A stretch of DNA of 64,000 bases from Caulobacteraceae bacterium (lineage in GTDB: Bacteria > Pseudomonadota > Alphaproteobacteria > Caulobacterales > Caulobacteraceae). The stretch is taken from NCBI GenBank assembly GCA_031291645.1, contig JARLIQ010000038.1, positions 22,414 to 86,413 of the forward strand, in the 5' to 3' direction. Both the position numbers and the translations under genes were made by a program. This document shows positions 3,788-31,381 of this stretch, in pieces (within the stretch, counting starts at the first letter, position 1; the number at the start of each line of letters is the position of its first letter). Under the pieces are notes generated by a model. That model saw only the letters and a program-made list of their open reading frames with translations, had not been told where the DNA came from and ran no database searches.

Positions 3788-3873
3788 TATTTCCCCCATA
3801 GAGCCGACTTCACTAGGGGGGGTATACGGAAAATTTCGTCCTGTATAGGACAAAATGAACCCGCTGGGGACGC

Positions 3874-4563: not shown

Positions 4564-4826
4564 GGTGGGGTGCTCACTGCTGCCGGCCTGCTACGATTCT
4601 AACTCGCAAGTGTCCGCGAAACGGGGCGCGGATAGAACACCGGGATGATCGCGTTGACAAGATAACAGGTGCCGAGGTCCTGTCCAGGATTGCGGTGTCT
4701 CGGGCGAGCAGCGTGGTTCGATCCGGCGAGCCATAAATAAAATTCCAGCCGCGAAGAGCGTCATGAGGCTCCGCATATCCGATAGAGGATCGTCTTGTCC
4801 TGATTTGAAACGACGGTCATAGTGCT

Positions 4827-8385: not shown

Positions 8386-8399
8386 AAGGATCGCCAGCA

Positions 8400-12863: not shown

Positions 12864-12993
12864 CCTCCTCCTGGCGGCTCAGGCGCAATGCTGCGCCATC
12901 AGAGTCCGGGACTGCACACCTAGACGAAGGCGAACCGCACGACCTCACCGGCGGGGTCAGGAAGTTGGCTCGACGAGCGCGATCCCCACGGCC

Positions 12994-13606: not shown

Positions 13607-13663
13607 GGGGCGCGCTCCAAGGCCGGATCGGGATGGGCGGGCGAGACCGGATGACCGCTTGGC

Positions 13664-14404: not shown

Positions 14405-14616
14405 GGCTGGTCCTCCGGTGTCGCTGGGAGGGAGCCGCGCCGCAACGCCGGCGTCTATTCCTCGAATCCGGGGAGTTTACGGCTCGGCCGTCCCGTCCGA
14501 TGATCTCGCGCCCCGGCGGGCGCACGGGAGCGCCACGTCCGACGCGCAAGGCGCCATGTTGATCGTTGAACACCCCGAGCAGGCCGCGGCCTTATGAGCT
14601 GTCCGTACTGCGCGCC

Positions 14617-15381: not shown

Positions 15382-15663
15382 GAGGTGATTTCAGGAGACG
15401 GGTGGGCGATTGCAAGAACTATCGATCAGACTCCGGACGAAATCGAAGCGTAGATCGTTTCGTTAGCCACCTGTAATGCCTTATGTTACAACAGAAACAT
15501 TAGAGATGAGATTTCACCTGGGCTTGCGACCGCTTGGCGAACCGACCGGTATGCCGGCGTCTCCAGGAACGTGCAACTCCCCGGTTTCGAGGATAGACGC
15601 GCATTCCACCTCTACCACAGGGTGTGATTTCCTGACCTGGACGGATCGCCTCCAAGCAAGCCC

Positions 15664-16542: not shown

Positions 16543-17104
16543 GCCTTCTCGGGCGGCGCGGCGGCGGCGGGACCTGCGCAGGTCCGGCGCCATGACTCTG
16601 AAACGCGCGCGCCAGTTCGCCCGCGCCGAGCCGCGCATAGTCGGCCTTGTTTCGCCAGTCGCGCCGCGCCATTGCAGGGCCCGCCTCGGTGGACGCTGGC
16701 GCCGGGTGCGCCAGCCGTCGCCTCAGGCGCCACTCTGAGCGACAAAGGTTGGCGAACCGGCGCCGCGAACGCCAGCCGATCGCATGCCGCCATGCGCCAC
16801 ACGCATGGCGGCTCGGGACATCGCCCGAAACACGCTTGAAGTTGCATCTGAAATCAATCTAGGCTCGCCTCGCGCCGCTCAATCGCGGCGCCGAGGCGTG
16901 AGAACCTCGCTCTTGAGATGTCCCCCTGACGTGACGTCGCCAGGCGACCGCACTGCGCGAGCGCCCGCTGCGAGCACGCAAGCCTCAGGCCGTCGTTCTC
17001 GTCGCGGGCGCACACGCTCGCGTCGCCTTGCGGACCGCAGATCGCGCAAGACCCTCGCCCGCTCAGGGCGGGTGGTCGCGCCGATGCGCTTGTGGGGTGA
17101 AGCG

Positions 17105-17701
17105 ATGCGCCTGGACGGCTTGGATGGGGGGATTGAACCGATCGACGAGGAGGATCGGGTGGAGCGCAGCCGGCCCATGGCCGACGCGATGCCCGAGCCG
17201 GGCCACGGGCTTGACGCCCTGTTCCGCGACCAGGCGCCCAGGCTGATGAAGCTGCTGGCCCGCAACACCTTCGGGCGCGACGACGCCCTCGACATCATCC
17301 AGGAGGGATTCCTGAGGATGGTCTGCGCGGTGAAGCGCCAAGCCCTCCCCCTCAATCCCGAGGCCTATCTCCAGAGCATCGTGCGCAACCTGATGCGCGA
17401 CCATGCGCGCAAGGCCGCCGTCCGCCGCAGCGGTCAGCACCGTCTCCTGGATCCCGAGGTTCTGGGCGGCCGGAGCGACGATCCGGAAGCGGTGCTGCAG
17501 GCGCGGGACCTGCTGCGGCGCTACGAAGCGGCGCTCGCGCGATTGAGCCCGAAGACCCGAGATGTTTTCCTGCGCCACAGAGTGGGCGGCTTCAGCTACG
17601 CCGAGATCGCCGAGCAGTTGAACCAGAGCGTGAGCAACATCGAAAAGCACATGATGAAGGCGATCGCGCATCTCGACCGGATGCTGGGAGACGACGCGTG
17701 A
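17105..17701 (+). CDS. ECF (FecI-like) RNA polymerase sigma factor
   Basis: Track ORF 16784..17701, but its first ~100 codons are Arg/Ser-rich junk. The sigma-2 (DALDIIQEGFLRM) and sigma-4 (SYAEIAEQLNQSVSNIEKHMMKA) regions lie after ATG 17105 (alternative ATG about 17177). A GTGA overlap joins it to the FecR gene. Confidence 0.8.
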   Translation: MRLDGLDGGIEPIDEEDRVERSRPMADAMPEPGHGLDALFRDQAPRLMKLLARNTFGRDDALDIIQEGFLRMVCAVKRQALPLNPEAYLQSIVRNLMRDHARKAAVRRSGQHRLLDPEVLGGRSDDPEAVLQARDLLRRYEAALARLSPKTRDVFLRHRVGGFSYAEIAEQLNQSVSNIEKHMMKAIAHLDRMLGDDA

Positions 17702-18708
17702 CGACGCCGGGCGATGACGCGCCGCCCGACGCGGAACGCCTGCGCCAGGCGGCTGCAGCCTGGTTCGCCCGCCTTCGCGCGCCCGACGGCGAGACCTCTC
17801 GTCCAGCCTTCGAGGCCTGGCGTGACGCGGATCCGGCCCATGCGGCCGCCTATGAGCGGATGGAGCGCGTGTGGTCGCGCGGCGCTGTCCTGGCTGCGGC
17901 CAGGCCTGGCCAGGGACGACCGCGCCGCAGGCGCGGGTGGCCGGGGCTGGCCTGGGGCGCCGCCGCCGGGCTTGGCGCAGCGGCCGCCGTCGGGCTCACG
18001 GTCCTGGCCGGCCCCGCTTCGCTCCAGCTCGAGGCCGCGTCGATCGTCTGGCCCAGGGTCTCGACCCGGATCGACCAGATCCGTCGTCTCGATCTGCCTG
18101 ATGGATCGCGCGTGACGCTGGACAGTGACACGGTGCTGGCCACCCATTTCGCGGCGGACATCCGCCAGGTGCGGCTTCTCCGCGGCCGCGCCCGGTTCGA
18201 CGTCGTCGACGAGCGCCGCCGCTTCGTCGTCGACGCCGGCCACGGCGCGATCGAGACCCGCAAGGCGCTGTTCGACGTATCCGTCCGACCCGGCCGGTCG
18301 GCGTCCGTCACCGCGCTCGGCGGGCGACTGGAGGCGAACGATCTCGACGCCCTCGCCGGCGCATCGAGGGCTGGGCGGACGCTCGTCGCCGGCGAGCGTC
18401 TTACGATCGACGGGCGGACGGGCGGGATCGAGGTTGCGGCGGCGCCGGCCGGCGACCAGCTCTGGCCCGAAGGCCTGCTCGATTTCCGCGGCGCGCCGCT
18501 CGGCGAGGCGCTGGCCGAAGCCAACCGCTACAGCCTCGCCAAGATCGTCCTCGCCGATCCGTCGCTGGCCTCGCTCCGGATCAGCGGGGTCTTCAAGGCC
18601 GGCGCCAACACCGACCTGGCGGCCAGCCTGGCGGCGATGTTCCACCTCGAACTCAGCCGCAGCGACACCGGCGGCTATGTGCTCTCGCGTGCCGCCGCCG
18701 CGTCCTGA
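17698..18708 (+). CDS. FecR-family anti-sigma factor / transmembrane sensor
   Basis: The N-terminal anti-sigma motif AAAWFARLRAPD...AFEAWRDADPAHAAAYERME is followed by a TM segment and a FecR periplasmic domain (DLPDGSRVTLDSDT...). Confidence 0.85.
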   Translation: MTTPGDDAPPDAERLRQAAAAWFARLRAPDGETSRPAFEAWRDADPAHAAAYERMERVWSRGAVLAAARPGQGRPRRRRGWPGLAWGAAAGLGAAAAVGLTVLAGPASLQLEAASIVWPRVSTRIDQIRRLDLPDGSRVTLDSDTVLATHFAADIRQVRLLRGRARFDVVDERRRFVVDAGHGAIETRKALFDVSVRPGRSASVTALGGRLEANDLDALAGASRAGRTLVAGERLTIDGRTGGIEVAAAPAGDQLWPEGLLDFRGAPLGEALAEANRYSLAKIVLADPSLASLRISGVFKAGANTDLAASLAAMFHLELSRSDTGGYVLSRAAAAS

Positions 18709-18728
18709 CGGCCCATCGGATCGAATTT

Positions 18729-18752
18729 GAACTTTTTTCGTCGAGCGACGTG
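18729..18752 (+). promoter_or_regulatory. Candidate ECF-type promoter (TGAAC-N16-CGT) upstream of the transporter gene
   Basis: GAATTTGAACTTTTTTCGTCGAGCGACGTG has AAC at 18730-18732 and CGT at 18749-18751, a 16-nt spacer as in iron-starvation/FecI-type promoters. It lies ~75 nt upstream of the TBDT start. Motif only. Confidence 0.3.
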
Positions 18753-18825
18753 AGGTCGCCCGCCCCTGTCCCGTCGAACGCCTCGAACGGACTTCGTCTC
18801 GAGGTTCGAAAGCGGGGAGCAGGGA

Positions 18826-21375
18826 ATGGTATTGTTGTCTCAATCGATCCGGCGGTGGGGCCTGGCTGGCGCGGCCGCGGGTGTGCTGGCGCTCGCCGCC
18901 GCCGCCGCTCAGGCCGCCGAGGCGGCGCGCAGCTACAACCTCAAGGCCGAGGACCTCGACTCGGCCCTGCACGAGGTCGCCCTGATCTCGGGCCGCTCGA
19001 TCATCGCCCCATCGGGCCTCTTAGCCCATCACCGCGGCGGACCGCTCGAAGGTCGTTACACCGCCGAGGACGCCGTCCGCGCGCTCCTGACCGGCACGGG
19101 CCTTTCCGTCAGCGTCGTCGGCGGCGCCCTGGTGGTCAGCGCCGACGATCAACCGGCCAACCCGCCAGCCGCCGCGCAGCTTTCCGAGGTCGTGGTCAGC
19201 GCCAGCCACATCAAGGGCGCGCCGCCCTCCGCGCCGGTCCAGACGGTGAACCGGACCGATATCGAACGGTCGGGGTATGGCGACGTCGGCGAATTGATGC
19301 GGAGCCTGCCGGAATCCTACGCCGGCGGCCAGCAGCCGGGTGTCCTGATCGGCGCCAGCGGCACCAACGCCGGCAACTCCAACCAGACCAACTCGGCCAC
19401 GGTCAACCTGCGCGGCCTCGGCTCGGACGCCACCCTCGTCCTGATCGACGGCCACCGGCTGGCGGCCGACGCCGAAAACCAGGCGCCGGACATCTCGGTG
19501 ATCCCGCTGGCCGGCATCGCCCGGGTCGAGGTGGTCACGGACGGCGCCTCGGCGCTCTACGGCTCGGACGCCGTGGCCGGCGTCGCCAACTTCATCATGA
19601 GATCCGACTACGACGGTGCGGAGGTCTCCGAGCGGATCGGCGGGGCGACCGAAGGCGGGGACTTCAGCCAGATCTACACGGCGCTGGCGGGCAAGACCTG
19701 GGGGAGCGGACACGTGCTGGCGAGCGTGGAGACCAGCCACCAGACCCCGATCCTGGCCAGCCAACGCGACTACACTCACGGTGCGCCCGGGGTGAACGAC
19801 CTTCTGTGGCCGCAGACCAAGACCTCGGCCTTCGTCAACCTCGGCCAGGACCTGACGCCCTGGGCGAGCTTCCACTTCGACGGCCTCTACGCCCATCGGC
19901 AGTACGGCCAGGACGAACAATCGACCGAGGCGACCCCGATCTCGGTCCTCGACGACAAGACGAAATTCTATTTCCTGGCGCCGGCGCTCGACTTCACCCT
20001 GCCGGACGGCTGGGCCGCCAGCCTGCAGGGAACAGCCTCGGCATCCCAGGACCCGGCATACATCAGCTTTCCGGGCGGTCACTACGTGACCAACTACGCC
20101 AACTCGACTGACGATGTCGAAGCCGGCGCCAGCGGGCCGATCGCGACCCTGCCGAGCGGGCAGGTCAAGCTCGCGGTGGGTGGCGGCTATCGGGCCGAGC
20201 GCTTCGCCGTCGACCTTGACGGATCGCCCTATCAGGCCGGCGCTGACCATGTGACCTATCTCTACGGCGAGGCCTTCGCGCCGCTGGTCAGTCCGTCCGA
20301 CGACCGGCTGCTGCTCCACGCGCTCGACCTCAGCCTCGCCGGCCGCTGGGAGCGCTACAGCGACTTCGGCTCCACGACCAACCCCAAGGTCGGCCTACGC
20401 TACAAGCCGGTGAACGGCCTGACGCTGCGCGCCACCTGGGGGACCTCGTTCAAGGCGCCGGAGTTCCTGCAGACCAGCGAGCCGGCGAACATCTTCCTCT
20501 ACCCCGGGACCTTCCTTGGCGGCTCAGCGGGGACGACCGGGCTCTTGACCTTCGGCGGCAACCCCAAGCTCAAGCCGGAGCGGGCGAACGGCTGGACCAT
20601 CGGGGCGGACTGGGCGCCGCCACAGGTCCACGCGTTCGAGGTGTCGGTGACCTACTTCAATATCGACTACACCGACCGCATCGTGCAGCCGATCAGCAAC
20701 CCCGGGGTCGCGCTCACCGACCCGCTCTACGCCTCGTTCGTCACCACCGACCCATCCGACGCCGAACAGGCCGCGGCCATCGCCAACGCTGGGGCCTTCT
20801 ACAACGAATCCGGCGCGGCCTATGACTCGTCCAAGGTGGTCGCCCTGGTGCAGGACCTCCTGGTCAACGCGGCGTCGCAAAGGATCCAGGGCGTCGACCT
20901 CTCGATCAAGAAGAGCTTCACGCTCGGCCCGGCCGACCAAATCGACGCCTTCGTCAACGCCAGCTGGCTGCATATCCTGCAGCAGACGCTGCCGAGCCAG
21001 CCGTTCGTGACCTTGACCGGCACCCTGTTCAATCCGCCGACCCTGCGCACGCGCGCCGGCCTGACCTGGACCCACGGCCCGCTGTCGGCCACCGGCATCG
21101 TCAACTACATCTCCGGCGAGATGGACACCGGGGTGACGCCCAACGTCCCAGTCGCGGCCTGGACGACGCTCGACCTGAACCTGAACTACAAGTTCGGCCG
21201 CCTGAACCGCAGGCTGTCCGACCTGGACGCGACGCTCTCCGTCACCAACGCCCTCGACGCCAAACCGCCCTACGCCAAGGGGGCGTCAGACTACGCCCCC
21301 GGCTTCAACTTCGACAGCACCAACGCCTCGGCGGTCGGCCGGTTCGTCGCCTTCCAGCTCCGCGAGCGCTTCTAG
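18826..21375 (+). CDS. TonB-dependent transporter with N-terminal STN signalling domain (FecA/FpvA-type transducer)
   Basis: Signal peptide, then an STN-like block (YNLKAEDLDSALHEVALISGRSIIAP...AEDAVRALLTGTGLSVSVVGGALVV), a plug (VNLRGLG..ATLVLIDGHR, VEVVTDGASALYGSDAVAGVANF) and a terminal ...FQLRERF. Confidence 0.9.
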   Translation: MVLLSQSIRRWGLAGAAAGVLALAAAAAQAAEAARSYNLKAEDLDSALHEVALISGRSIIAPSGLLAHHRGGPLEGRYTAEDAVRALLTGTGLSVSVVGGALVVSADDQPANPPAAAQLSEVVVSASHIKGAPPSAPVQTVNRTDIERSGYGDVGELMRSLPESYAGGQQPGVLIGASGTNAGNSNQTNSATVNLRGLGSDATLVLIDGHRLAADAENQAPDISVIPLAGIARVEVVTDGASALYGSDAVAGVANFIMRSDYDGAEVSERIGGATEGGDFSQIYTALAGKTWGSGHVLASVETSHQTPILASQRDYTHGAPGVNDLLWPQTKTSAFVNLGQDLTPWASFHFDGLYAHRQYGQDEQSTEATPISVLDDKTKFYFLAPALDFTLPDGWAASLQGTASASQDPAYISFPGGHYVTNYANSTDDVEAGASGPIATLPSGQVKLAVGGGYRAERFAVDLDGSPYQAGADHVTYLYGEAFAPLVSPSDDRLLLHALDLSLAGRWERYSDFGSTTNPKVGLRYKPVNGLTLRATWGTSFKAPEFLQTSEPANIFLYPGTFLGGSAGTTGLLTFGGNPKLKPERANGWTIGADWAPPQVHAFEVSVTYFNIDYTDRIVQPISNPGVALTDPLYASFVTTDPSDAEQAAAIANAGAFYNESGAAYDSSKVVALVQDLLVNAASQRIQGVDLSIKKSFTLGPADQIDAFVNASWLHILQQTLPSQPFVTLTGTLFNPPTLRTRAGLTWTHGPLSATGIVNYISGEMDTGVTPNVPVAAWTTLDLNLNYKFGRLNRRLSDLDATLSVTNALDAKPPYAKGASDYAPGFNFDSTNASAVGRFVAFQLRERF

Positions 21376-21400: not shown

Positions 21401-23485
21401 ATGATCAGTCTCACCCTGCGGGCGAGCTTTCTCGCGTCCGCGTCCGTTCTGCTCGCCTGTGCTTCGGCGCAGGCGGCCCCCTCGCCGCGCGAGCTGTTGG
21501 AACTCGCCGACCTTTCCAGCGTCTCGATCTCGCCAGACGGCTCCACCGTCGCGTTCCGGCTGGAGCGCGCCTCTGTGGAACGCAACACCTACGACAGCGT
21601 CTGGTTCGTCGAGCCGGTGGCCGGCGGGACGGCGCCACGGCGGCTAGCCGACGGCGGCCCGCCGCCACACAACGACCAGGGCGGGGCGACCAGCACGCCG
21701 CCAATCTGGTCGCCAGATGGGCGTTGGATCTACTACCAGGCCCTGATCGACGGCCAGGTCCAAGTCTGGCGCGCGGCGGCCGACGGCTCCCGAGCCGAGG
21801 CCATCACCCACGATCCAGCCGACGTCCAGGCCTTCGCGGTGAATCCCGACGGCTCCAGCCTGCTCTACCGGGTCGGCGCGACGCGCGAGGCGATCCTGGA
21901 GGCCGAGCAGACCGAGTACGATCAGGGGATCAGGATCGACGCCACCGTTCCGGTCGGCCAGCCGCTCTTCCGGTCGGGCTATGTCAACGGCCGGCTGGCC
22001 ACCCAGCGGTTCACCAACGATTGGTCGAGCCGAGGCCCCCTCCTCGGCCAGACCGTCCCGAGCTGGAAGTGGGTCGACCTGGCCAGCCTGGAGACACGCG
22101 ACGCCACATCGACGGAACTCAGGGCCGCGTCGGGGCGGCTGCCCACCGTCACGACCAGCATGATCGAGGCCGTCGGTGTCGCCTTCAGTTCGCGGTCTCC
22201 CGACAGTGGCGCGATCGTCGAGGCGCTGTTCGCGGGCAAAGCCAAGACCCTCCAGGTCCGAAGGCCTGACGGTTCACGGCTGATCTGCAGGGTCCCGCGC
22301 TGCACAGACGTCGACGTCGTCGCCGCCGTCTGGCGCCCAGGCCACGATCAGGTCGTCTTCAGCACGACGGACCACGACCGCGGCCGAGGGCAGTCGCTCC
22401 TGCTCTGGGACTTGTCGACCGGCACGGTCCGGCTGATCGTTCGGTCGGCGGGGCTCCTGGCCGGCGGGCGCGACGTCGGCTGGAACAATTCCTGCGCCGT
22501 CGGCGAACGCTATGCGGTGTGCGTGGCCGCCGACGCGGACACGCCGCCCAGGCTGGAGCGGGTGGACCTCGAAACCGGCGAGCGAGCTGTGCTCTTCGAT
22601 CCGAACGCCGCGCTCGCCGCTGAGGCTGGCCCGCATGCCGCCTTCATGGCCTGGAAGGACCCAGCCGGTGAGGTCTTCACCGGCGAATACTTCCCCCCGG
22701 CCGTCGTCGGTTCGGGCGTGCCGGCGCCCCTGTTCATCACCTACTACAGCTGCGGCGGCTATCTTCGGGGCGGCGCCGGCGACGAGTGGCCGCTCGCCAG
22801 CCTCGCCGGGGCCGGCATCGCCGCGCTCTGCGTCAACGAGCCTGCGCTGAACCTGCCGCATCTTGACCAGCTTGAGCGGTACCAGACGGCGATTTCCGGC
22901 ATTCGGACCGTGATCGATGACCTCGCACGGAGCGGTCAGATCGATCCGCATCGCGTCGGGATCGGCGGCCTCAGCTTCGGCAGCGAAGTGGCGATGTGGG
23001 TGGCGATGCGCTCGAATCTTGTCTCGGCCGTCTCGGTCACCTCGCCGTCGGTCACACCGACCTACTTCTGGGCGCACAGCGTGAAGGGCGCCGGCTTCCG
23101 CGCCGACCTTCGAGGCATGTGGGGCGTCGGTTCGCCAGAGGAAACGCCGGACCGGTGGAAGCTCCTGTCGCCGGCCTTGAACCTCGACAAGCTCCACGCC
23201 GCCATCCTGATGCAGATGCCTGAGCAGGAGTACCTCGACACGATCGACTACATCTCCCCGCTCATGGCGTCGTCCACGCCGATCGAGGTCTACGCCTTCC
23301 CCAACGAGCCGCACCAGAAGGTCCAGCCTCGGCACAAGTTTGCGGCCTACGAGCGGAATCTGGACTGGTTTCGCTTCTGGCTTCAGGGGTATGTCGATCC
23401 GGACCCGACCAAGGCGGCGCAATACCAACGTTGGGAGACAATGCGCGTCAAGGCCGCCCAAGGTCAGCCGACACCGTCGGGCTGA
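21401..23485 (+). CDS. Prolyl-oligopeptidase (S9) family serine hydrolase; lasso-peptide isopeptidase (AtxE-type) candidate
   Basis: Signal peptide, an N-terminal beta-propeller-like half (SPDGSTVAF, WSPDGRWIYY), and a C-terminal alpha/beta hydrolase with GxSxG (GIGGLSFGSEV) and a late His (NEPHQK). It is placed between the TBDT and the lasso cyclase, as in astexin-type loci. Confidence 0.75.
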   Translation: MISLTLRASFLASASVLLACASAQAAPSPRELLELADLSSVSISPDGSTVAFRLERASVERNTYDSVWFVEPVAGGTAPRRLADGGPPPHNDQGGATSTPPIWSPDGRWIYYQALIDGQVQVWRAAADGSRAEAITHDPADVQAFAVNPDGSSLLYRVGATREAILEAEQTEYDQGIRIDATVPVGQPLFRSGYVNGRLATQRFTNDWSSRGPLLGQTVPSWKWVDLASLETRDATSTELRAASGRLPTVTTSMIEAVGVAFSSRSPDSGAIVEALFAGKAKTLQVRRPDGSRLICRVPRCTDVDVVAAVWRPGHDQVVFSTTDHDRGRGQSLLLWDLSTGTVRLIVRSAGLLAGGRDVGWNNSCAVGERYAVCVAADADTPPRLERVDLETGERAVLFDPNAALAAEAGPHAAFMAWKDPAGEVFTGEYFPPAVVGSGVPAPLFITYYSCGGYLRGGAGDEWPLASLAGAGIAALCVNEPALNLPHLDQLERYQTAISGIRTVIDDLARSGQIDPHRVGIGGLSFGSEVAMWVAMRSNLVSAVSVTSPSVTPTYFWAHSVKGAGFRADLRGMWGVGSPEETPDRWKLLSPALNLDKLHAAILMQMPEQEYLDTIDYISPLMASSTPIEVYAFPNEPHQKVQPRHKFAAYERNLDWFRFWLQGYVDPDPTKAAQYQRWETMRVKAAQGQPTPSG

Positions 23486-25277
23486 ACGGGGAAAGCGGCT
23501 CGGCCCTGGCGTCGCGCCCTCGCCAGGACTTGATCCAGGCCTCGGCGCCGGCCATTTCGAGCAGCCTGTAGAAGTTCACGTCGGGCGGCGGTCCTGTCTG
23601 GGCCAGATAGGCCTCGACCGCCGGGCGGTCCAAGAGGCCCATCCGGTCAAGCTCGCCGCCGATCAGCAAGTCGGCGAGCTGGCGGCGGTTGCGAACGAAG
23701 GCGAGGCCGCTGAAGCCCGAAAAGTCGCCTTTCGAGCGCCGGGTTAGGACCTCGGGCGGCAAGCGATCGGCGAAGGCGTCCCTGGCGACGGCGCGGTTCC
23801 GCCCACCCTGGATCCACATCCAGCTTGGGATGCGCAGACAGTGTTCGACAAGGGGTTGGGACAACAGCGGATAGCGGAGCGGCGCGAGGCCGGCGCGATC
23901 CTGGCTGTCAACCGCGCACTGGATGAACATCAGGCTCGTGACGTGCTCGATCTTGCCGGGCAGCGCATCCGTGGGACGTTCGAGCCAGGGATGCGGGGCG
24001 GGATCATACCGAAGAGTATTTGACGACAGAAACCGCGGGTCTTTCCGCCAAACCGGCGGCCGGCCTCGCGCCCACTTTCTCAGAGCAAGGCCGGCAGCGC
24101 GCCAGAGGGTGCAGCGATGCAGGTTTGAGAGATCGTCGACCGCGCGCAGAAAGGTCAGACCAGGGCCGCGCGTGAGCAGCGCGTCGGTCGCCGGCGCGGC
24201 GCTCCCCAGGTAGCAGAAGACGTTGTCGCCGCCACCCCCCGAGAACAGCGCGTCAGGGCGCCGGTCGCGCGCCTCGGCGATAAACGCCAAGTCCACGGCC
24301 TGCTGCAGGGCGCCAAGGCCGGGCCTCAACCAGGTAAGCGTCGGCGCACGCGCGATCTCGACAGCGTCGATGTCCAGCTTTCGCGTCGTCAGCGAAGCGC
24401 CGATGGAGCGCGCCATCGCCTCGGCGTAGGCGCGTTCGTCGGCGGCCGGATCATCAGTCGCGAGGTTGACGCAGGAGACGCCGGACCGGCCGTGCAAAGA
24501 GGCGGCGATGATCGATGAGTCCAGGCCTCCAGAGAGCTCGAGCAGGATGGCGGGCGACTGGCGAGCCCAGGCGCGAACGCAGCGCTCGGCTTCTTCACGA
24601 ACGCCGGCTGTGGCCGCCCCGCGGTCATGCAGCTGTGCGCCGCGATCGGCGAAGGTCCAGGGCGACCAGACCGTAGCGATGCTCGTGCGGCCGCCTTCGA
24701 TCGTCAGCCGGGTTCCGGCCACCAGCTCACTGACGCCGCAAAGGCCGGTCCGCGCTCCGCGGAGGCCTCTGAAAAGCAGGTAGTGCGCGATGAACGCCGG
24801 ATCGACCTCGGGCTTGATCAACGCCAGGGCGAGAATCGGCTCGAGATCGGAGAAGAGGACCTGACATCCCTCCCAGGCCAGGCGAAAGCAGGCCATCGCG
24901 CCAGACGGGTCTCGGACCGCATCGACGCGGTTATGCGCATGGTCGGCGAGAAGGGCGATGTAGCCACCCCACACCGACTGCAACAGGGATTCGCCACGGC
25001 TCTCCGTCACCTGCGAGCTGAGGACAAGATCCGAGGCCCGCACCGGGTCCGCCTCGCCGCCGCGATGAAACAGGGCCCCGATCACCACACCGGCGCCGCC
25101 CTGGATGGGAAGGATCGGCGTCTCTTGCGCGGCGTAGACTACGAGTGCGTCGACGTCGAACACACGAACCATGCCGAAGCGCTGTTCGAGCGCGGCTGCG
25201 ATCTGAGCCAGACGTGGTTCGAGGCGGTCGCGGGCGCCGGCAGGGACAACGATTGCGAGGTAGCGTTCGCGCATCAC
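23448..25277 (-). CDS. Lasso-peptide cyclase (asparagine-synthetase-like, McjC family)
   Basis: 609 aa with a PP-loop ATP-binding motif LELSGGLDSSIIAASL and an Asn-synthase B-like fold. An ATGA overlap joins it to the upstream B gene. Its C-terminus is paralogous to the remnant at 10286-10470. Confidence 0.85.
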   Translation of the reverse strand: MMRERYLAIVVPAGARDRLEPRLAQIAAALEQRFGMVRVFDVDALVVYAAQETPILPIQGGAGVVIGALFHRGGEADPVRASDLVLSSQVTESRGESLLQSVWGGYIALLADHAHNRVDAVRDPSGAMACFRLAWEGCQVLFSDLEPILALALIKPEVDPAFIAHYLLFRGLRGARTGLCGVSELVAGTRLTIEGGRTSIATVWSPWTFADRGAQLHDRGAATAGVREEAERCVRAWARQSPAILLELSGGLDSSIIAASLHGRSGVSCVNLATDDPAADERAYAEAMARSIGASLTTRKLDIDAVEIARAPTLTWLRPGLGALQQAVDLAFIAEARDRRPDALFSGGGGDNVFCYLGSAAPATDALLTRGPGLTFLRAVDDLSNLHRCTLWRAAGLALRKWARGRPPVWRKDPRFLSSNTLRYDPAPHPWLERPTDALPGKIEHVTSLMFIQCAVDSQDRAGLAPLRYPLLSQPLVEHCLRIPSWMWIQGGRNRAVARDAFADRLPPEVLTRRSKGDFSGFSGLAFVRNRRQLADLLIGGELDRMGLLDRPAVEAYLAQTGPPPDVNFYRLLEMAGAEAWIKSWRGRDARAEPLSPFSPTVSADLGRP

Positions 25278-25930
25278 ACCACCAGGATCGGCGTGAAGCA
25301 GGTGACTGCGCCGAGGCCGTCATTGAGGACTTCGGCGCCGGCCTGCACCCAGCAATGGGCGGTGAAAGGGTTCAGCCGCACGCCGAAGACCAGGTCGGCC
25401 GCGAATCCTCGGGCGCCGAGAAAATCGAGCATGGCCAACGCGTCGGGCAGGCAGGCGATCGCGTGAGGACAGATCCGTCGGGCTGCGCTGAAGTCGAGCG
25501 CCAGCCGCCGTAGAGACCGATCGCCAGCGCCAACGGCGCGCAGACGGGCGTTTCGGCTTCGAACACGCGCGATCAGTGCGCTGAACGGCGTTCTGACCAC
25601 CTGGCCTCGGGCGCGCGCCAACCTGAAGGCGACCTCCACCACGACGGCCGGCCCGAAGCGGGCGCGGTCGCCTGGCGCATCGACAAGGCTGGATTCTGGC
25701 TGCGGGGCGCGCGTGGGCTCAATGGGGGCCGCGCCTTGTGGCTCGACCACGCCGGTGCGCGTCAGCGCTTCCATATCGTTCGCAGGCGGGACGCCCCCAC
25801 CGGCCAACGCGCGGAAGGCATGTTCAGCCGCGGCACGGAGGCAGTAGTAGCGGTCCGCCCGCATATCGAGGAAGACGGGACGATCCCCGACCCAACAGAA
25901 GCTGACCTGTTCGCGAAGACTCCAGGGCAT
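25274..25930 (-). CDS. Lasso-peptide B protein: fused PqqD-like RRE (B1) and transglutaminase-like Cys protease (B2), McjB family
   Basis: The N-terminal block VSFCWVGDRPVFLDMRADRYYCL is PqqD/RRE-like. The C-terminal catalytic pattern is C (RRICPHAIACLPDALA), H (FTAHCWVQ) and D (VLND). Length 218 aa. Confidence 0.8.
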   Translation of the reverse strand: MPWSLREQVSFCWVGDRPVFLDMRADRYYCLRAAAEHAFRALAGGGVPPANDMEALTRTGVVEPQGAAPIEPTRAPQPESSLVDAPGDRARFGPAVVVEVAFRLARARGQVVRTPFSALIARVRSRNARLRAVGAGDRSLRRLALDFSAARRICPHAIACLPDALAMLDFLGARGFAADLVFGVRLNPFTAHCWVQAGAEVLNDGLGAVTCFTPILVV

Positions 25931-25962
25931 GGTGTCCCTCGCCCGCTCTGTAAGGGGAAACA

Positions 25963-25992
25963 GCGGCGCGCGTGCACAGGCTCGCGCGCCGC
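25963..25992 (-). terminator. GC-rich hairpin (10-bp stem) between the precursor and B genes; probable attenuator
   Basis: On the mRNA strand GCGGCGCGCG-AGCCTGTGCA-CGCGCGCCGC is followed by TGTTTCCCC. It sits in the 72-nt A-B intergenic gap. Confidence 0.5.
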
Positions 25993-26002
25993 CGCGCCAG
26001 GC

Positions 26003-26137
26003 TCAGTCGTCCGAGATGCCTTCCGGCAGGAGGTAGCCCGTGGCCTCGCCGTGAAGCTGCACGCCGCCGTGGGTCTCGACGCTCGCGGCGCCCAGGTCGA
26101 TCAGTTCGGCTTCACGCCGGTCTTCGGTCCGTTCCAT
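26003..26137 (-). CDS. Lasso-peptide precursor (44 aa): leader MERTEDRREAELIDLGAASVETH, predicted core GGVQLHGEATGYLLPEGISDD
   Basis: Manual ORF below the track size cut-off, ATG 26137-26135 to TGA 26005-26003. A GGAGA Shine-Dalgarno sequence lies 6 nt upstream. Thr is at -2, Gly at +1 and Glu at +8 (ring acceptor). It lies directly upstream of, and co-oriented with, the B and C genes. Confidence 0.8.
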   Translation of the reverse strand: MERTEDRREAELIDLGAASVETHGGVQLHGEATGYLLPEGISDD

Positions 26138-26156
26138 CGCAGGTCTCCCTATGGAG

Positions 26157-26177
26157 GGTCACGACCGTTTCGTGACC
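26157..26177 (-). promoter_or_regulatory. Perfect 8-bp inverted repeat GGTCACGA-N5-TCGTGACC in the precursor 5' leader
   Basis: Seen directly, ~20 nt upstream of the precursor start. The same position in the decayed paralogous leader (10510-10530) keeps a 7-bp pairing with one G-U wobble. Confidence 0.45.
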
Positions 26178-26226
26178 GACCCACGATAGGCGCCGCCTCG
26201 GGCTTATCCTGAGAGAATTATCCTCA

Positions 26227-26241
26227 AACTATCCGATAGTT
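26227..26241. promoter_or_regulatory. Operator-like palindrome AACTATC-N1-GATAGTT abutting a TTGAGG -35-like hexamer upstream of the precursor gene
   Basis: Perfect 7+7 inverted repeat ~90 nt upstream of the precursor ATG. The right half-site is conserved at 10579-10593 upstream of the decayed second locus. Confidence 0.4.
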
Positions 26242-26489
26242 GCCCCGGTCTCCGGAGAGATCGCGCCTGGCGTTGCGCCGATCCTGCATTCGCGCGTCAT
26301 CAGGCGCGGGAGGGCGCCGGTCGTTGAGAACACTCCCGACCTGCGGTGTCGGGAGCCTACGGCGCTTCGCGCTTTTACAAGCCTCGACCATTACCGGACG
26401 CCAGATTGTGAAAATCAGATTCTCGCTACCTGACATTCACGGCCAACCCCAAAAAGGCGCCTGATTTGGCCCAACATCGTTATTGCGAG

Positions 26490-26535
26490 CCCCGCTCGTT
26501 GAGGTTCGCGCCAACACAAACCTCAACGAGCGGGG
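26490..26535 (-). terminator. 17-bp perfect stem-loop just downstream of the SDR gene
   Basis: CCCCGCTCGTTGAGGTT-N12-AACCTCAACGAGCGGGG, 8 nt after the SDR stop codon. No U-tract follows, so its function as an intrinsic terminator is uncertain. Confidence 0.4.
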
Positions 26536-26542
26536 GACGCCA

Positions 26543-27304
26543 TCAAGCTTCCGGCGACAGCTCCGCGTGGCCGCCATCGGCCCGCAATTCCATGCCGGTC
26601 GAGAAACTGCTGTCGTCTGACGCCAGGAACAGCGCAGCAGCCGCAAGTTCTTCCGGCCGTCCCAGCCGCTTCATCGGGGTCACGCCCGCAGCGTATCTCC
26701 GGAATTCGGCAGCGGCCTCAGGCGTGGGCGAGTTGGTGTCCATGATGGGCGTGTCGACCGGCCCTGGGCTGAGTGTGTTGACCCGGATCCCGCGCGACAT
26801 CAATTCGGTCGCGAAGGTCCGCGCCAGCGAGCGAACCGCAGCCTTGGACGCATTGTAGACACTCATGCCCCGGTCTCCTCGGACGTTGAGCGATGACGAA
26901 ACCAGAATGATGGAAGCGTTGTCGTTCAGAATCGGTAACGCCTTCTGCACGGTGAAAAACGCTCCGCGAACGTTGAGATCGAAGATCTTGTCGAACAGCT
27001 CAGCCTCGACCGCGTCCAGTGGGGCTGCGTCGGCACGACCGGCATTGGCGACGATGATATCCAGCTTGCGACCGTCTGCTGCGATCCGGGCGTAAACCGC
27101 CTCGATATCCCCCATCTTCGCAAGGTCGGCCCTGATCGACGCCGCGCTCGCGCCGATCTCGGCGACCGTTTCCGCAAGTTCCGCTTCCCGGCGTCCGACG
27201 ATGTAGACGAAAGCCCCCTCCTCCGCAAAACGGCAGGCTATGGCGCGGCCGATTCCGCTGCTTCCGCCCGTGACGATCGCGACCTTATTTTGCAATTTGC
27301 CCAT
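26543..27304 (-). CDS. SDR-family oxidoreductase
   Basis: TGGSSGIGRAIA cofactor motif, an NAG segment and a YNASKAA catalytic motif. 253 aa. Confidence 0.9.
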   Translation of the reverse strand: MGKLQNKVAIVTGGSSGIGRAIACRFAEEGAFVYIVGRREAELAETVAEIGASAASIRADLAKMGDIEAVYARIAADGRKLDIIVANAGRADAAPLDAVEAELFDKIFDLNVRGAFFTVQKALPILNDNASIILVSSSLNVRGDRGMSVYNASKAAVRSLARTFATELMSRGIRVNTLSPGPVDTPIMDTNSPTPEAAAEFRRYAAGVTPMKRLGRPEELAAAALFLASDDSSFSTGMELRADGGHAELSPEA

Positions 27305-27434
27305 GAGCGCCCTTTCGCTACCGAAGCACGGACTGCGCCGCCCGGCTGCTGGTCATTTAGGGGCGCCCGCGTCGCGATAGGAGCCTCCTTCAGGCGATAG
27401 CATCTATTCCTTGGCGGAATACTGCGAGCAACCG

Positions 27435-28340
27435 TCATCTGATACAAAGGGTCGGTTCGGCCGCACAAACCGCCTCGACATAGTCGATGAAAACCGCGGC
27501 ACGTCTTGGCAGCGCGCGGTCGCCCGACCAGACCGCGCTGATCGGAGCTTGAACGCACTCATAATCCGTCAGAATCTGGCGAACGGCGCCTGAGATCAGC
27601 TCGTCCCTGAACAGCCAACTCGCGGCGTGGGCGATACCCAGACCGGCCTTCACGGCTGCCCTGGTCAGTTCGACATCATCCGATTGGATAGGCCCTTTAG
27701 GATCGATCGTTACGCGATCGCTTCCCCGACGAAAGCTCCAAGGGCGTGGCCTTCCGTGACGGATGGACGCGATGCACGGATGCCCCTCAAGCTCTGCCGG
27801 CGTCGTCGGCTCACCATGCCGGCGCAAATATTCCGCCGAAGCAACGACGATCGCCGCGGTCGTGCCGACCTGACGTGAACGGAGTTCGGAGTCCTCAAGG
27901 TCACCCACACGGATCGCGACATCGATACGCTCCTCGACCAGATTGACGAGCCGCTGGGATACGACGAATTCCAGCAATAATTTGGGATATCGCTCGACGA
28001 ATGGCCCCAAGTTGGGCAGCAGATAAGATGTTGCGAAGCCCGGCGGACACGTCAGCCGGACCAGTCCGGCTGGCGAGCGCTCCCGTTCGCTCACCGCGTC
28101 TTCCAGCAGCTCGAGCTCGTCGACAAGGCGCCGGGCGTTATCGTAGTAGTGCTGGCCGGCTGCCGTCAGCGCGAGGCCGCGCGACGAGCGCCGTACCAGT
28201 TGTGTACTGAGCCGCTTCTCCAAAGCAGCGATCTGCTTGCTCGTGGTGGATTGCACGATCCCCATCTGTCGAGCCGCTTTCGAAAAGCTTCCCGCTTCGG
28301 CAACCCGAAGGAAGAGCTTCATTACGTCAATTTTGTCCAT
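27435..28340 (-). CDS. LysR-family transcriptional regulator
   Basis: HTH block FLRVAEAGSFSKAARQMGIVQSTTSKQIAALEKRL plus a substrate-binding domain. 301 aa. Confidence 0.9.
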   Translation of the reverse strand: MDKIDVMKLFLRVAEAGSFSKAARQMGIVQSTTSKQIAALEKRLSTQLVRRSSRGLALTAAGQHYYDNARRLVDELELLEDAVSERERSPAGLVRLTCPPGFATSYLLPNLGPFVERYPKLLLEFVVSQRLVNLVEERIDVAIRVGDLEDSELRSRQVGTTAAIVVASAEYLRRHGEPTTPAELEGHPCIASIRHGRPRPWSFRRGSDRVTIDPKGPIQSDDVELTRAAVKAGLGIAHAASWLFRDELISGAVRQILTDYECVQAPISAVWSGDRALPRRAAVFIDYVEAVCAAEPTLCIR

Positions 28341-28656
28341 GAGCCATGATTAGTCCATCGAGTTCACGGGTAATACAGCGACAAAAGCCAATGACTCCGA
28401 AAGGCTGCTATCGAGGTCGGCTCGCCAGAAGCAGTCAGCCAGATAAGTCCCAGCTGCCGACCTTCAGAGAGGCGCGGCGGCGTCCCTGAATGAACGGCGA
28501 ATTTCAGGATCTGCGACCGGCGCGTTGAACGACGACAATTGGGCGCACAGCTGACCAGCCTATTTACACGCCATTCCACGCCAATGCCCCACACCGTGGC
28601 GCCAGAGGTCGCCATGCACTAACATTGAGCTGGATCACCCCGCAGGGGCAGGCCAC

Positions 28657-29285
28657 ATGGACCTCAACAAGTTCGACCTCAACCTACTCAAGGCACTGGA
28701 TGTGCTTCTTGAGGAACGGAACGTCACCCGCGCAGCAGAACGCCTCTTCATCACACAACAAGCCGCCAGCGGCGCGCTCCAGCGCCTGCGTCGGCATTTC
28801 GACGACGATCTGCTCAGCCCTGTTGGCCGCCGGCTTGAGCCCACGCCCTTGGCCCTGTCACTGGTCCTTCCTGTCAGGGAAGCCCTCCTCGCAACCAAGG
28901 CGGCGCTCGGCACGCGCCCCACATTCGATCCGCAAAGCGCCCAGGCAAACTGTCGAATCGCCATGACCGATTACAGTTTGCTCGTGGCGCTACCGCGGTT
29001 TCTGCGTCGCCTTTCAGTGGACGCTCCGCGCGTGCGTTGCACCGTCGAGCCGCTAACAAAGAACTCCTTCGATCGACTGGACATGGGTGACCTCGACTTC
29101 TGCCTCGCCGCGAACGACGTCCGTCTCTATGGACGCCACCGACCGGGCAAACTCATTCGCTCGGAGCCGATGTTTCAAGACGACTTCGTCTGCGTCGTAG
29201 ACCCGCGATATGTCGACATTTCGCGAGGAATGCCCCTAAGCGCCTACAAGCGGCTTCGCCATAACTCGGTTGCATTCGGCGAGCC
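28657..29285 (+). pseudogene. NodD-like LysR-family regulator, 3'-truncated
   Basis: MDLNKFDLNLLKALDVLLEERNVTRAAERLFITQQAASGALQRLR... is NodD/LysR-like up to ...YKRLRHNSVAFGE (about codon 210). After that, homology and base composition change abruptly. The track ORF (28657..29715) is a chance in-frame read-through into the excisionase gene. Confidence 0.65.
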
Positions 29286-29475
29286 GTGGGCGCCGGCTCG
29301 CGACGGCCGCCACCGCACCCGGCAAGTCATTTTTCGCTGGTGTGCGCCTTGCGGCGATGCGCGGAATTGGGCGATTCCCAGCGCCGCCCGCACGCGCTTA
29401 GATCAGCCGAGAGCCCAGGCCGAGCCCTCACTAGGCGGCCGTTCCTTTGATCCCGAGACTGGAGCGCGGACCAGG

Positions 29476-29715
29476 ATGCGATCGCCGGAGACCCCAGCGG
29501 CAAAGCGCCTCTTCACCGTCAACGAGTTCTGCACGGCCTACGGAACGGGCCGGTCCAAGACCTACGAGCTGATCCGGCTGGGCCTGCTGAAGGCGCGCAA
29601 GCTCGACGGCAAGACCATGATCCGAGCCGAGGACGCTGAGGCCTTCGTTGAGCGCCTTCCGCCAGCGCTGGGCGCGCTTGGCCCCAGCCCCGGCCGTCGC
29701 CGCTCCCTGAGTTGA
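29476..29715 (+). CDS. AlpA/excisionase-family DNA-binding protein
   Basis: MRSPETPAAKRLFTVNEFCTAYGTGRSKTYELIRLGLLKARKLDGKTMIRAEDAEAFVERL is the typical helix-turn-helix excisionase pattern. It lies adjacent to the integrase. Confidence 0.7.
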   Translation: MRSPETPAAKRLFTVNEFCTAYGTGRSKTYELIRLGLLKARKLDGKTMIRAEDAEAFVERLPPALGALGPSPGRRRSLS

Positions 29716-29746
29716 GATTAGGATACATGCCTAACTGATTTCCTGG

Positions 29747-30997
29747 TCACGGTTTTCCAGTGCAGTAGTCACACCACGACTGCATGACCGTCCGGCGCAG
29801 TTCGACGAGCCGATCCCGCTGGTAGGCCGCCTCCAGACCCGGCTGCGCATGGGCCAGGCTGAGCTCGGCCACATCGCGCGCCACCCCCTGTCTGGCCGCC
29901 CACGTGCGGAACGCCGCCCGCATGCCGTGAGTGGTCACCCCTTCCCGCTTCATCCGGGCGAGGAGGTGCTGGAGCGAGACGTGGCTGATCGGCCGGATTG
30001 GGCTGTTACCCGGGAAGAGGAGGACGCTCTCGCCGCGCTCGATGTCTTTGATGAGCGCCGCCGCCTGACGCGAGAGCGGCACGACGTGCTCGCGCCCGCC
30101 CTTCATCCGCTCAGCGGCCAAGGTCCAGGTCATCTTGTCGAGATCGAATTCCCCCCAACTGGCCCAGAGCGCCTCGGCGGCGCGGGCGGCGGTGTAGATG
30201 ACGAGCTCCATGGCCCGGGCCGCCTGGCCCGACCGGCCTTTCAGCTCGGCGACGAAGCCGGGAAGATCGTCGATCCGGATGGCGGCGTGGTGGACGACCT
30301 TGTGCACCTTGTTCTTGGCCGGGAGGGTGTGGGCCAGGTGGCCCTTCCAGCGAGCCGGATTCTCGCCTTCGTCGCGGTGGCCGTGGGCGACGGCGTAGTC
30401 GAGGATGAGCTCGATCCGGCCGCGGATTCGCGACGCCGTCTCGGTGCGTTCGCTCCAGAAGGCGGCCGCCGCCTTGCCGACCGGCTGGCGCAGGATCTCG
30501 AGCACCGCGGCGGCGTCCACCTGCCCCACAGGCGTCCTGCCGATGAAGGGGTGGACGTAGGTCTCGAGCGAGCCCTTCCATTGCCCCTCGGATTTGGGGT
30601 TCTTCCAGGCCGCGGCGTGGTCGGCGATGTACCGGGCCGCGACATCCTTGAAGGTGAGCGCCCTGGCCGCCTTGCGCGCCACCTCGGCGCGTTCGGCCGC
30701 CCTGACATCCAGGGGGTCCTTGCCGTCGGCCAGCAGCCGCCTCGCGGCGTCCGCCCGGGCGCGCGCTTCGGCCAGGCCCACGGTGGGATAGGGCCCAAGT
30801 CCGGCCTGCCGGGCGCGGCCATGGCGCATGTAGCGGAAGATCCAGGACTGTGGTCCGGCGACGGGCGGGGCGTCGACGCCATCCTTCCGCCTGGCGGGGT
30901 TGACGAAGAGGTAGAGCCCCTCGTCGACCCGATGCCGGCCGATGGTCCTGGCCAGGCGGTCGACCTCCAGTTTGGTGGAAATCTTGTGGGAACGCAT
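29747..30997 (-). CDS. Tyrosine recombinase / P4-type phage integrase
   Basis: N-terminal arm-binding (DUF4102-like) region (GLYLFVNPARRKDG...WIFRY), a SAM-like core, and catalytic residues in ...TTHGMRAAFRTWA...LSLAH...AYQR. The start at ATG 30997 is more likely than 31018. It lies next to a tRNA gene. Confidence 0.9.
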   Translation of the reverse strand: MRSHKISTKLEVDRLARTIGRHRVDEGLYLFVNPARRKDGVDAPPVAGPQSWIFRYMRHGRARQAGLGPYPTVGLAEARARADAARRLLADGKDPLDVRAAERAEVARKAARALTFKDVAARYIADHAAAWKNPKSEGQWKGSLETYVHPFIGRTPVGQVDAAAVLEILRQPVGKAAAAFWSERTETASRIRGRIELILDYAVAHGHRDEGENPARWKGHLAHTLPAKNKVHKVVHHAAIRIDDLPGFVAELKGRSGQAARAMELVIYTAARAAEALWASWGEFDLDKMTWTLAAERMKGGREHVVPLSRQAAALIKDIERGESVLLFPGNSPIRPISHVSLQHLLARMKREGVTTHGMRAAFRTWAARQGVARDVAELSLAHAQPGLEAAYQRDRLVELRRTVMQSWCDYCTGKP

Positions 30998-31138
30998 CGG
31001 CCCCGGCGCCTCCAACATCTGGTCGGAGTGTGTGGATACGAACGTGTTTGGCGTTCAGTTATCACTGATCAGGAACCTGTTCCGGACCCGGTCCAGGCGC
31101 CCGATTTGGCTCCGCGCGAGCCATTGCCAGCGCATTTG

Positions 31139-31160
31139 TTCCCACAAACCTTCCCACAAA
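31139..31160. repeat. Tandem direct repeat TTCCCACAAA-CC-TTCCCACAAA between the integrase and the tRNA (candidate arm-type integrase binding sites)
   Basis: Seen directly. There are two exact 10-mers 12 nt apart, and the first overlaps a TTTGT/ACAAA inverted repeat. Confidence 0.35.
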
Positions 31161-31304
31161 TATGAGCCGGCTTGAGGCGGATTGCAAGGCGCCGTCGCGC
31201 ACACGATCCGAGCGGCCACGGCCGCTAATCCTTGGTTTTTATGGGGATTTTTCGCCTATTCCGGCCTGTCCCGCACGCTTGCGGACGACCATGGAAAGCC
31301 CTCT

Positions 31305-31381
<77 letters not shown>

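Follow-up and report, generated by a model that had tools for sequence, protein, structure and literature searches.

The 64,000-nt stretch of DNA analysed here, referred to below as the window, belongs to a Caulobacteraceae bacterium (GenBank assembly GCA_031291645.1, contig JARLIQ010000038.1, forward-strand positions 22,414 to 86,413), and all coordinates are counted from its first letter. Its minus strand carries a 44-codon open reading frame (ORF), designated here as gene A, which is predicted to encode the precursor of a lasso peptide. A mature lasso peptide is a threaded macrolactam with the mass of the core peptide minus 18 Da, and it is resistant to heat and to carboxypeptidase. Gene A lies beside the biosynthetic genes B and C and beside a set of plus-strand genes encoding an isopeptidase, a TonB-dependent receptor, an anti-sigma factor, and an extracytoplasmic function (ECF) sigma factor. 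The genes and RNA elements of the cluster are as follows.

26003..26137, minus strand: lasso precursor gene A, ATG start, 44 codons plus stop, translation MERTEDRREAELIDLGAASVETHGGVQLHGEATGYLLPEGISDD
26069..26137, minus strand: leader of A, codons 1-23, MERTEDRREAELIDLGAASVETH
26006..26068, minus strand: core of A, codons 24-44, GGVQLHGEATGYLLPEGISDD, 21 residues
26003..26005, minus strand: stop codon of A, TGA, as read from the sequence
26149..26144, minus strand: Shine-Dalgarno sequence GGGAGA of A, kept in the related loci L003 and L005
26158..26176, minus strand: hairpin GTCACGA-AACGG-TCGTGAC in the 5' untranslated region (UTR), just upstream of the Shine-Dalgarno sequence, putative function
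25960..25995, minus strand: GC-rich stem-loop between A and B, 13 + 2 base pairs, followed by UUUCCCC; stem kept in L003 and L005
25274..25930, minus strand: lasso B protein, 218 amino acids, RRE/PqqD-like N-terminus and B2 cysteine protease C-terminus (PF13471, NF033537; GenBank MDR3511065.1)
23448..25274, minus strand: lasso cyclase C, Asn-synthetase-like macrolactam synthetase, 608 amino acids (PF00733, 112.8 bits)
21401..23485, plus strand: AtxE2-family lasso peptide isopeptidase, 694 amino acids (NF033523 equivalog, 620.7 bits, cut-off 400; GenBank MDR3511063.1)
18826..21375, plus strand: TonB-dependent receptor with an N-terminal STN signalling domain, FecA-like transducer (Plug, TonB_dep_Rec_b-barrel, STN)
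17698..18708, plus strand: FecR-type anti-sigma factor (FecR and DUF4880 domains)
17084..17701, plus strand: ECF (FecI-like) sigma factor, 205 amino acids (Sigma70_r2, Sigma70_r4_2, sigma70-ECF; gene call taken from L001)

Organization of the gene cluster

The ATG codon of gene A (26137..26135) is separated from the Shine-Dalgarno sequence by a 6-nt spacer (26143..26138). The B ORF begins 72 nt downstream of A on the same strand and is followed by the C ORF. A first-pass annotation of the window, made from the letters alone, had proposed this minus-strand ORF together with a ribosome-binding site 6 nt upstream and two co-oriented neighbours directly downstream. The ORF is present at 26003..26137 with exactly the translation proposed, the ribosome-binding site is read as GGGAGA, and the neighbours are the 218-residue ORF at 25274..25930 and an ORF of 608 or 609 residues. 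For the latter gene, which had been placed at 23448..25277, the most likely start is the ATG at 25274 and not the GTG at 25277; the ATG overlaps the stop codon of B as TGATG. The first-pass annotation had also stressed that A was missing from its ORF track. The ORF is real, but the weight given to this omission was overstated, since GenBank already holds the identical protein (MDR3511066.1, “benenodin family lasso peptide”, from a Caulobacteraceae metagenome-assembled genome) and curated hidden Markov models (HMMs) exist.

A check of the two neighbours of A against domain models had been set beforehand. For B, it returned Transglut_core3 (PF13471) at 73.5 bits and the lasso B2 model NF033537 at 74.6 bits over residues 100-218 (cut-off 33), as well as a weak PqqD/RRE-like match over residues 7-64; for C, it returned Asn_synthase. 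Alignment of 13 B homologues shows no variation at Cys160 and His192 or in the N-terminal LD...RY motif, which we take to be part of the leader-binding domain. The isopeptidase gene is convergent with C, and the two genes overlap by 38 nt. In a comparison of its product with the AtxE2 structure 5TXC (E-value 2.5e-55), GLSFGS pairs with GLSDGA and PNEPHQK with PNEHHVK, the AtxE2 motifs that presumably bear the catalytic Ser and His. The call for the 205-residue sigma factor gene falls within a longer ORF (16784..17701). All seven cluster genes are intact, without frameshifts.

The order A-B-C, followed by the convergent genes for the isopeptidase, TonB-dependent receptor, FecR, and ECF sigma factor, is the same in 14 related loci, whose proteins are from 26% to 86% identical to those of the window. 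These loci comprise two metagenomic loci with close relatives and 12 of the 13 genomes found, which belong to Caulobacter, Sphingomonas, Sphingopyxis, Sphingobium, and Novosphingobium; the locus of the thirteenth genome (L017) stops about 500 nt beyond its match to A, and L009 is cut by a contig end. No ABC transporter domain was found among the 30 neighbouring ORFs scanned, and no McjD-type exporter/immunity gene lies in or beside the cluster; the sole ORF of the window with an ABC signature encodes a 250-residue ATPase (39933..40685) about 14 kb away. With an AtxE2-family gene beside A-B-C, the receptor and sigma/anti-sigma genes downstream of the isopeptidase gene, and no ABC exporter, the cluster is of the isopeptidase type. 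The same architecture has been described previously, together with isopeptidase specificity for the astexins, sphingopyxin I, and benenodin-1 (PMC9266682). The window has a single precursor gene, and tandem pairs of precursors with differing cores are found in L006 (10001..10356), L007 (6406..6785), and L017 (6206..6720); the tandem cores of Caulobacter hibisci, for example, begin with GGPYVLPE... and GAPSTMPE...

Family assignment, predicted product and alternative readings

A 44-codon ORF alone is unremarkable in GC-rich DNA such as this, with a GC content of about 69%: the region from 15 to 32 kb is overlapped by 169 ORFs of at least 30 amino acids. The case for A therefore rests on homology and context. 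The protein matches the Pfam model PF24178 (Subterisin) at 47.7 bits (E-value 1.5e-12, cut-off 27), with residues 1-43 of A aligned to model positions 1-42, and the NCBIfam model NF033522 (benenodin family lasso peptide) at 48.3 bits (E-value 6.6e-13, cut-off 33), both matches being full-length. The leader bears the family motif ELIDLG...ET with Thr at position -2, and among the six reading frames of the whole window this leader-like motif occurs in gene A only. At the junction of leader and core, the sequence reads ...E-T-H|G-G-V-Q-L-H-G-E8, in which Gly1 and Glu8 fit the lasso rules.

Four close relatives of A (P0002-P0005) are 68-86% identical to it and occur in the same gene order. All five sequences retain M1, ELI[DE]LGAASVET, Gly1, Gly2, Gly7, Glu8, Gly11, Pro15, Gly17, Ser19, and Asp20; the Thr at -2 is invariant among them, ring positions 3-6 are variable, and P0005 has Gly at the place of Glu16 of the A core. 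Comparison of A with its counterparts in L003 and L005 reveals both synonymous and conservative codon changes. A family profile built from the five close sequences was searched against 1.84 billion representative proteins, which resulted in 45 matches at an E-value of 1e-3 or below, nearly all of them 40-46 residues long and of the same layout. In the 60 family precursors, the core has 20-24 residues (median 21), Gly1 is present in 59, and each core has an acidic residue, which is residue 8 in 55 of them and residue 9 in five. Throughout the family, the Thr precedes the conserved first Gly by exactly two residues, and core residue 2 varies among homologues (G/P/A/S/E/N). A tail of the form G-[ILMV]-[STAG]-acidic ends 55 of the 60 precursors. 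The first-pass annotation had read the lasso rules (Thr at -2, Gly1, acidic position 8) from the single sequence of A, had favoured a G1-E8 ring, and had likened the acidic GISDD tail to those of sphingonodin-, syanodin-, and sphingopyxin-type peptides. The rules are kept across the 60 family members, the positions of Gly1 and of the acidic residue agree with the favoured ring, and the resemblance of the tail is real and a feature of the family.

On sequence evidence, A very probably encodes the precursor of a benenodin/subterisin-family lasso peptide (class II) in a cluster of the isopeptidase type, and we put the probability of this assignment at about 0.9. Several observations weigh against it. 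The source of the window is a metagenome-assembled genome. The C protein stays below the thresholds of the lasso/macrolactam cyclase models NF033535 and NF033561, so that only the general Asn_synthase model passes its cut-off; the two models where C falls short are the actinobacterial and cyanobacterial exceptions. Immediately upstream of A, a GntR-like regulator is absent, and genes for a short-chain dehydrogenase/reductase (SDR) and a LysR protein are found there instead, which may mean that regulation differs or that the cluster is poorly expressed. GntR upstream of the precursor gene is near-constant in clusters of this type (PMC9266682), and it is found directly upstream of A in eight related loci; L005 also has no adjacent GntR. 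The upstream GntR is an accessory, not a defining, feature of the cluster type.

We infer the maturation of the precursor (leader binding, cleavage, and G1-E8 closure) from established lasso biochemistry, as summarized in PMC9266682 and PMC13352647. The RRE half of B would bind the leader, and its B2 Cys-His protease half would cleave between His23 and Gly24. The C protein would then adenylate the side chain of Glu8 and join it to the amine of Gly1 round the pre-folded tail. This would give a 21-residue [1]rotaxane in which a macrolactam ring of eight residues is threaded by the 13 residues of the tail; its computed monoisotopic mass is 2109.0014 Da ([M+2H]2+ 1055.51), compared with 2127.01 Da for the linear core. 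Tyr12, Leu13, and Leu14 are candidate plugs, being the sole bulky residues in the right region. The conserved acidic tail of the product may be trimmed, and a C-terminally trimmed form would be expected because benenodin-1, a peptide with an 8-residue ring, is isolated without five of its tail residues (PMC13352647) and the sphingonodins are tabulated without the acidic tail (PMC12427821). Loss of one to five C-terminal residues would give computed masses of 1993.97, 1878.95, 1791.92, 1678.83, and 1621.81 Da, respectively.

Among the alternatives, it is unlikely that the cluster, despite its intact enzymes and precursor, is cryptic or self-limiting in its host: the adjacent GntR would have been lost and the isopeptidase would re-linearize the product, so that no stable peptide accumulates under ordinary conditions. 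This scenario is favoured by the location of GntR in the window, which is next to A in the eight related loci but here lies about 3 kb past the ECF sigma gene, beside a decayed second cyclase; by a low-GC block with a tRNA-Pro gene and an integrase gene that abuts the upstream region of A; and by the ability of isopeptidases to hydrolyse their cognate threaded peptides (PMC9266682). However, the seven genes carry no frameshifts, conservation with L003 and L005 extends over about 120 nt before the ATG and takes in the Shine-Dalgarno sequence and the hairpin, and the arrangement without an adjacent GntR is not unique, being shared by L005.

The AtxE2-like isopeptidase would act on the cognate threaded peptide, opening its isopeptide bond by hydrolysis and thereby re-linearizing it. 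The STN-containing receptor together with FecR and the ECF sigma factor suggests, in line with a hypothesis from the literature, that the peptide is taken up or sensed at the cell surface as part of a siderophore-like or signalling cycle and does not serve as an antibiotic. A secreted antimicrobial of the microcin J25 type, in place of such a scavenger or signal, appears improbable to us. Many characterized lasso peptides are antimicrobial and enter their targets via TonB-dependent receptors. One product of an isopeptidase cluster, astexin-1, is active with a narrow spectrum; apart from astexin-1, however, the known peptides of isopeptidase clusters are without antimicrobial activity (PMC9266682). 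Moreover, it is the producer itself that carries the genes for the receptor, the anti-sigma factor, and the sigma factor, and the cluster has no McjD-type exporter/immunity gene in it or next to it, the only ABC-like ATPase being the remote ORF at 39933..40685.

There is only a slight chance that A is genuine but processed otherwise, either by cleavage one residue later, which would give a G1-E7 ring, or with Glu16 or Asp20 as the acceptor. The core opens with Gly-Gly, so that either Gly could be residue 1, and seven-residue rings are known in other lasso families. However, the second core residue is free to vary and so does not behave as a conserved N-terminus, and the Thr is fixed two residues before the conserved Gly, which argues for G1-E8 and not for G1-E7. 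In addition, an acidic residue is never found only at position 7, Glu16 is replaced by Gly in P0005, and the ring of benenodin-1 has eight residues (PMC13352647). Finally, the abundance of short ORFs (169 over 17 kb) might suggest that A arose by chance in GC-rich intergenic DNA and yields no peptide. This reading is effectively refuted by the matches of two curated HMMs at E-values of about 1e-12, the 45 profile matches of common length and layout, the place upstream of B and C kept in 14 loci, and the codon differences from L003 and L005, both synonymous and conservative, with the conserved synteny excluding a compositional artefact in the HMM matches.

Comparison with known lasso peptides

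The core of A was compared by global identity with 25 published lasso cores, taken from the table of PMC12427821 and supplemented with sphingocin (PMC11006600). The best identities were 36% with sphingocin and 33% with caulonodin I and II, and the tenth best was 29%. The core and two of its sub-strings had no match in 8 million full texts; supplementary tables of genome-mining studies lie outside that search, and an earlier listing of the RODEO type is possible. The first-pass annotation had not recognized the core as a named lasso peptide, which agrees with these results. A search of the PDB with the precursor sequence returned chance matches only (E-value of at least 0.16), lasso cores being too short for such a search. 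Thus, what is new at this locus is the core sequence of an uncharacterized peptide, and what was known is its family, its cluster type, and its GenBank annotation. In every structural respect, the predicted peptide is typical.

The namesake of NF033522, benenodin-1 from Asticcacaulis benevestitus, has, like the predicted window peptide, Gly1 and a ring of eight residues in which the acidic position 8 is the acceptor, and both clusters have a cognate isopeptidase (BenE in the case of benenodin) and no exporter. The acceptor is Glu in the window peptide and Asp in benenodin-1, which is outside the ten best-matching published cores. The tail of the window core is GISDD, whereas benenodin-1 as isolated, after the loss of five residues, ends with ...AKPM. 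The second namesake, subterisin from Sphingomonas subterranea, gave its name to PF24178, the model that A matches over its full length.

Sphingonodin I/II, syanodin I, sphingopyxin I/II, and caulonodin I-III, reportedly from the study of proteobacterial lasso peptides by Hegemann et al. in 2013, derive from the same type of cluster in Sphingomonadales and Caulobacterales. Like the window core, their cores have 20-24 residues, Gly1, and an acidic residue at position 8. The G-[IL]-S/T-acidic tail is common to the window core, caulonodin I (...GLSRD), and caulonodin II (...GLSED) (PMC12427821), but the ring GGVQLHGE and the loop ATGYLLP of the window core are found in none of the listed peptides.

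Among the cores compared, the closest in sequence is that of “sphingocin”, whose precursor SpgA was predicted only (Sphingomonas sp. BPH / Sphingopyxis bauzanensis, PMC11006600; locus L010). SpgA has the leader motif ELIDLG...ETK|G and the tail GLSDD, and its locus has the same layout of A-B-C, isopeptidase, and TonB-dependent receptor genes; it is 43% identical to A over the precursor and 36% over the core. In contrast to the window, the sphingocin locus has a GntR gene directly upstream of the precursor gene. A transposon insertion in the sphingocin B gene was tied to the loss of phenanthrene use (PMC11006600), a link with no counterpart in the window.

The cluster of astexin-2 and astexin-3 in Asticcacaulis excentricus contains AtxE2, an isopeptidase of the same family as that of the window and likewise in a convergent position near genes for a TonB-dependent receptor, FecR, and an ECF sigma factor. 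However, these peptides have 9-residue rings (G1-D9) and 24-residue cores, as compared with the predicted 8-residue ring and the 21-residue core of the window peptide, and their precursors are unrelated to A beyond the general lasso rules. The microcin J25 system (McjA/B/C/D) shares the biosynthetic logic: Thr is the penultimate leader residue, the B protein combines RRE and protease, the C protein is Asn-synthetase-like, and the ring is of the G1-E8 type predicted for the window peptide. It has a McjD-type exporter/immunity gene, in place of which the window cluster has the isopeptidase, the receptor, and the sigma/anti-sigma module; its core is unrelated to that of the window and is also outside the ten best matches.

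The locus therefore adds one uncharacterized core with a Glu8 acceptor, GGVQLHGEATGYLLPEGISDD, to a well-populated family with several members that have been expressed and structurally solved. Its practical value is modest: it is a ready candidate for heterologous expression, and P0002-P0005 provide a natural mutational series in ring positions 3-6. As a test case for the producer-side role of isopeptidase-type lasso peptides, it is no better than many similar loci.

Regulatory sequences and flanking DNA

Ahead of the ATG of A, alignment with L003 and L005 shows a conserved segment of about 120 nt (26138..~26260) that contains the palindrome AACTATCGGATAGTT, three GGATA[AG] repeats, and the 7-bp hairpin. 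A GC-rich hairpin occupies the same position before the Shine-Dalgarno sequence of the precursor gene in most of the related loci that were folded, and the more distant loci (within the L003-L018 set) have ATTATAA/GGATAT repeats at the same positions as the upstream repeats of the window. In single-sequence folds of L007, L010, L011, and L013, a pyrimidine tract pairs with the Shine-Dalgarno sequence. Sequestration of this sequence was considered as a control mechanism and is not claimed, given a weak result of the shuffle control (mean pairing of 0.70 vs 0.57 overall); in the window, the pairing is 0.61 vs 0.53 in shuffles, 25% of which are as high, and the difference is not significant. A consensus fold of 13 5' UTRs (RNAalifold on a MAFFT alignment) was not obtained, the hairpins being misaligned, and an Rfam scan of the window returned tRNA only.

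The stem-loop between A and B belongs to an 86-nt stretch that folds at -44.7 kcal/mol (z = -2.4). It does not fit the pattern of a simple terminator and is a candidate attenuator or mRNA-stabilizing hairpin, which probably sets a high ratio of A to B and C. It resembles the yield-limiting intergenic hairpins of other proteobacterial lasso clusters, the removal of which was used to raise heterologous yields of the respective peptides (PMC7549694).

Scanning of 25800..26700 for sigma-70 promoter and intrinsic-terminator consensus sequences found nothing, and a search upstream of A for an ECF -35/-10 pair (AAC-N15-18-CGT) gave no match that was consistent across loci. Upstream of the TonB-dependent receptor gene (18709..18825, plus strand), the window, L003, and L005 have in common the element GTGAGG-N16-CGTCG, which is preceded by an A/T run and is a candidate ECF promoter of the FecI type. 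Since this element is not repeated in front of A, we do not claim that the ECF sigma factor drives A.

The features flanking the cluster are as follows; the first four lie beyond the ECF sigma gene.

12920..13606, minus strand: GntR
13664..14404, minus strand: LuxI
14617..15381, minus strand: LuxR
15664..16542, plus strand: LysR
26543..31381: low-GC block with SDR and LysR genes, a LysR/HTH_17 ORF (28657..29715), a P4-type tyrosine integrase gene (29747..31018), and tRNA-Pro(GGG) (31305..31381) at its end
476..9554: genes for DUF1611, a second TonB-dependent receptor, an XRE-cupin regulator, a beta-lactamase-fold protein, an M81/MlrC peptidase, and an S58 (DmpA-type) peptidase

A fragment of a second cyclase gene was identified by tblastn at ~10325..10528 on the minus strand. 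It is 49% identical to residues 512-579 of C, contains an in-frame stop, and has 72% nucleotide identity to the 3' end of the L003 cyclase gene; it sits at the GC step near 10 kb and looks like a relic of a second, decayed lasso cluster. A tblastx search for further relics in the 9-13 kb region returned mostly noise in the GC-rich DNA, and only the tblastn cyclase fragment is trusted. The LysR-LuxR-LuxI-GntR block (12920..16542) stands between this relic and the ECF sigma gene. The same four-gene block is found upstream of the precursor gene in L003 (5034..8598), beside Trb conjugation genes, and LuxI/LuxR-like genes also flank the GntR-A pair in L007 and L008. Thus, an acyl-homoserine lactone (AHL) quorum-sensing pair recurs beside lasso clusters. 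The regulator block of the window probably belongs to the decayed unit, and the simplest reading is that of two tandem lasso units, the second of which has lost all but its regulators and a cyclase fragment; where the missing A and B genes of that unit would be, an AbiEi-type gene is now located.

On the other side of the cluster, the block at 26543..31381, which abuts the upstream region of A, has a GC content of 0.62-0.63 compared with about 0.70 around it and is probably a small tRNA-linked island. An att direct repeat of the tRNA-Pro 3' end was not found at its other edge. Two independent Logan metagenome contigs with the identical cluster both break at ~26572, at the edge of this block. 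The same edge also has, immediately behind the stop codon of the SDR gene, a perfect inverted repeat of 17 bp, CCCCGCTCGTTGAGGTT...AACCTCAACGAGCGGGG, within 26480..26540; it is likely a terminator that insulates the lasso operon from upstream transcription.

These elements can be combined with the receptor and sigma factor genes into a single, speculative scheme, which we consider doubtful as a whole. The peptide would be a self-made extracellular signal or cargo carrier; the STN receptor would sense it, FecR would free the ECF sigma factor, the receptor and the isopeptidase would be induced, and the imported peptide would be linearized. The module would further be wired to AHL quorum sensing, as suggested by the recurrence of the LuxR-LuxI-GntR block beside the clusters of the window, L003, L007, and L008, and carried on mobile DNA, as suggested by the Trb conjugation genes flanking the L003 cluster and the tRNA-Pro/integrase block flanking that of the window, with the 5' UTR adding translational control. 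For work on the producer-side role of such peptides, two leads may be useful: the LuxRI-GntR genes that recur beside the clusters and the conserved hairpins of the leader mRNA. At the far end of the window, the region 476..9554 has a GC content of 0.60-0.62 and carries a gene set that resembles one for peptide catabolism.

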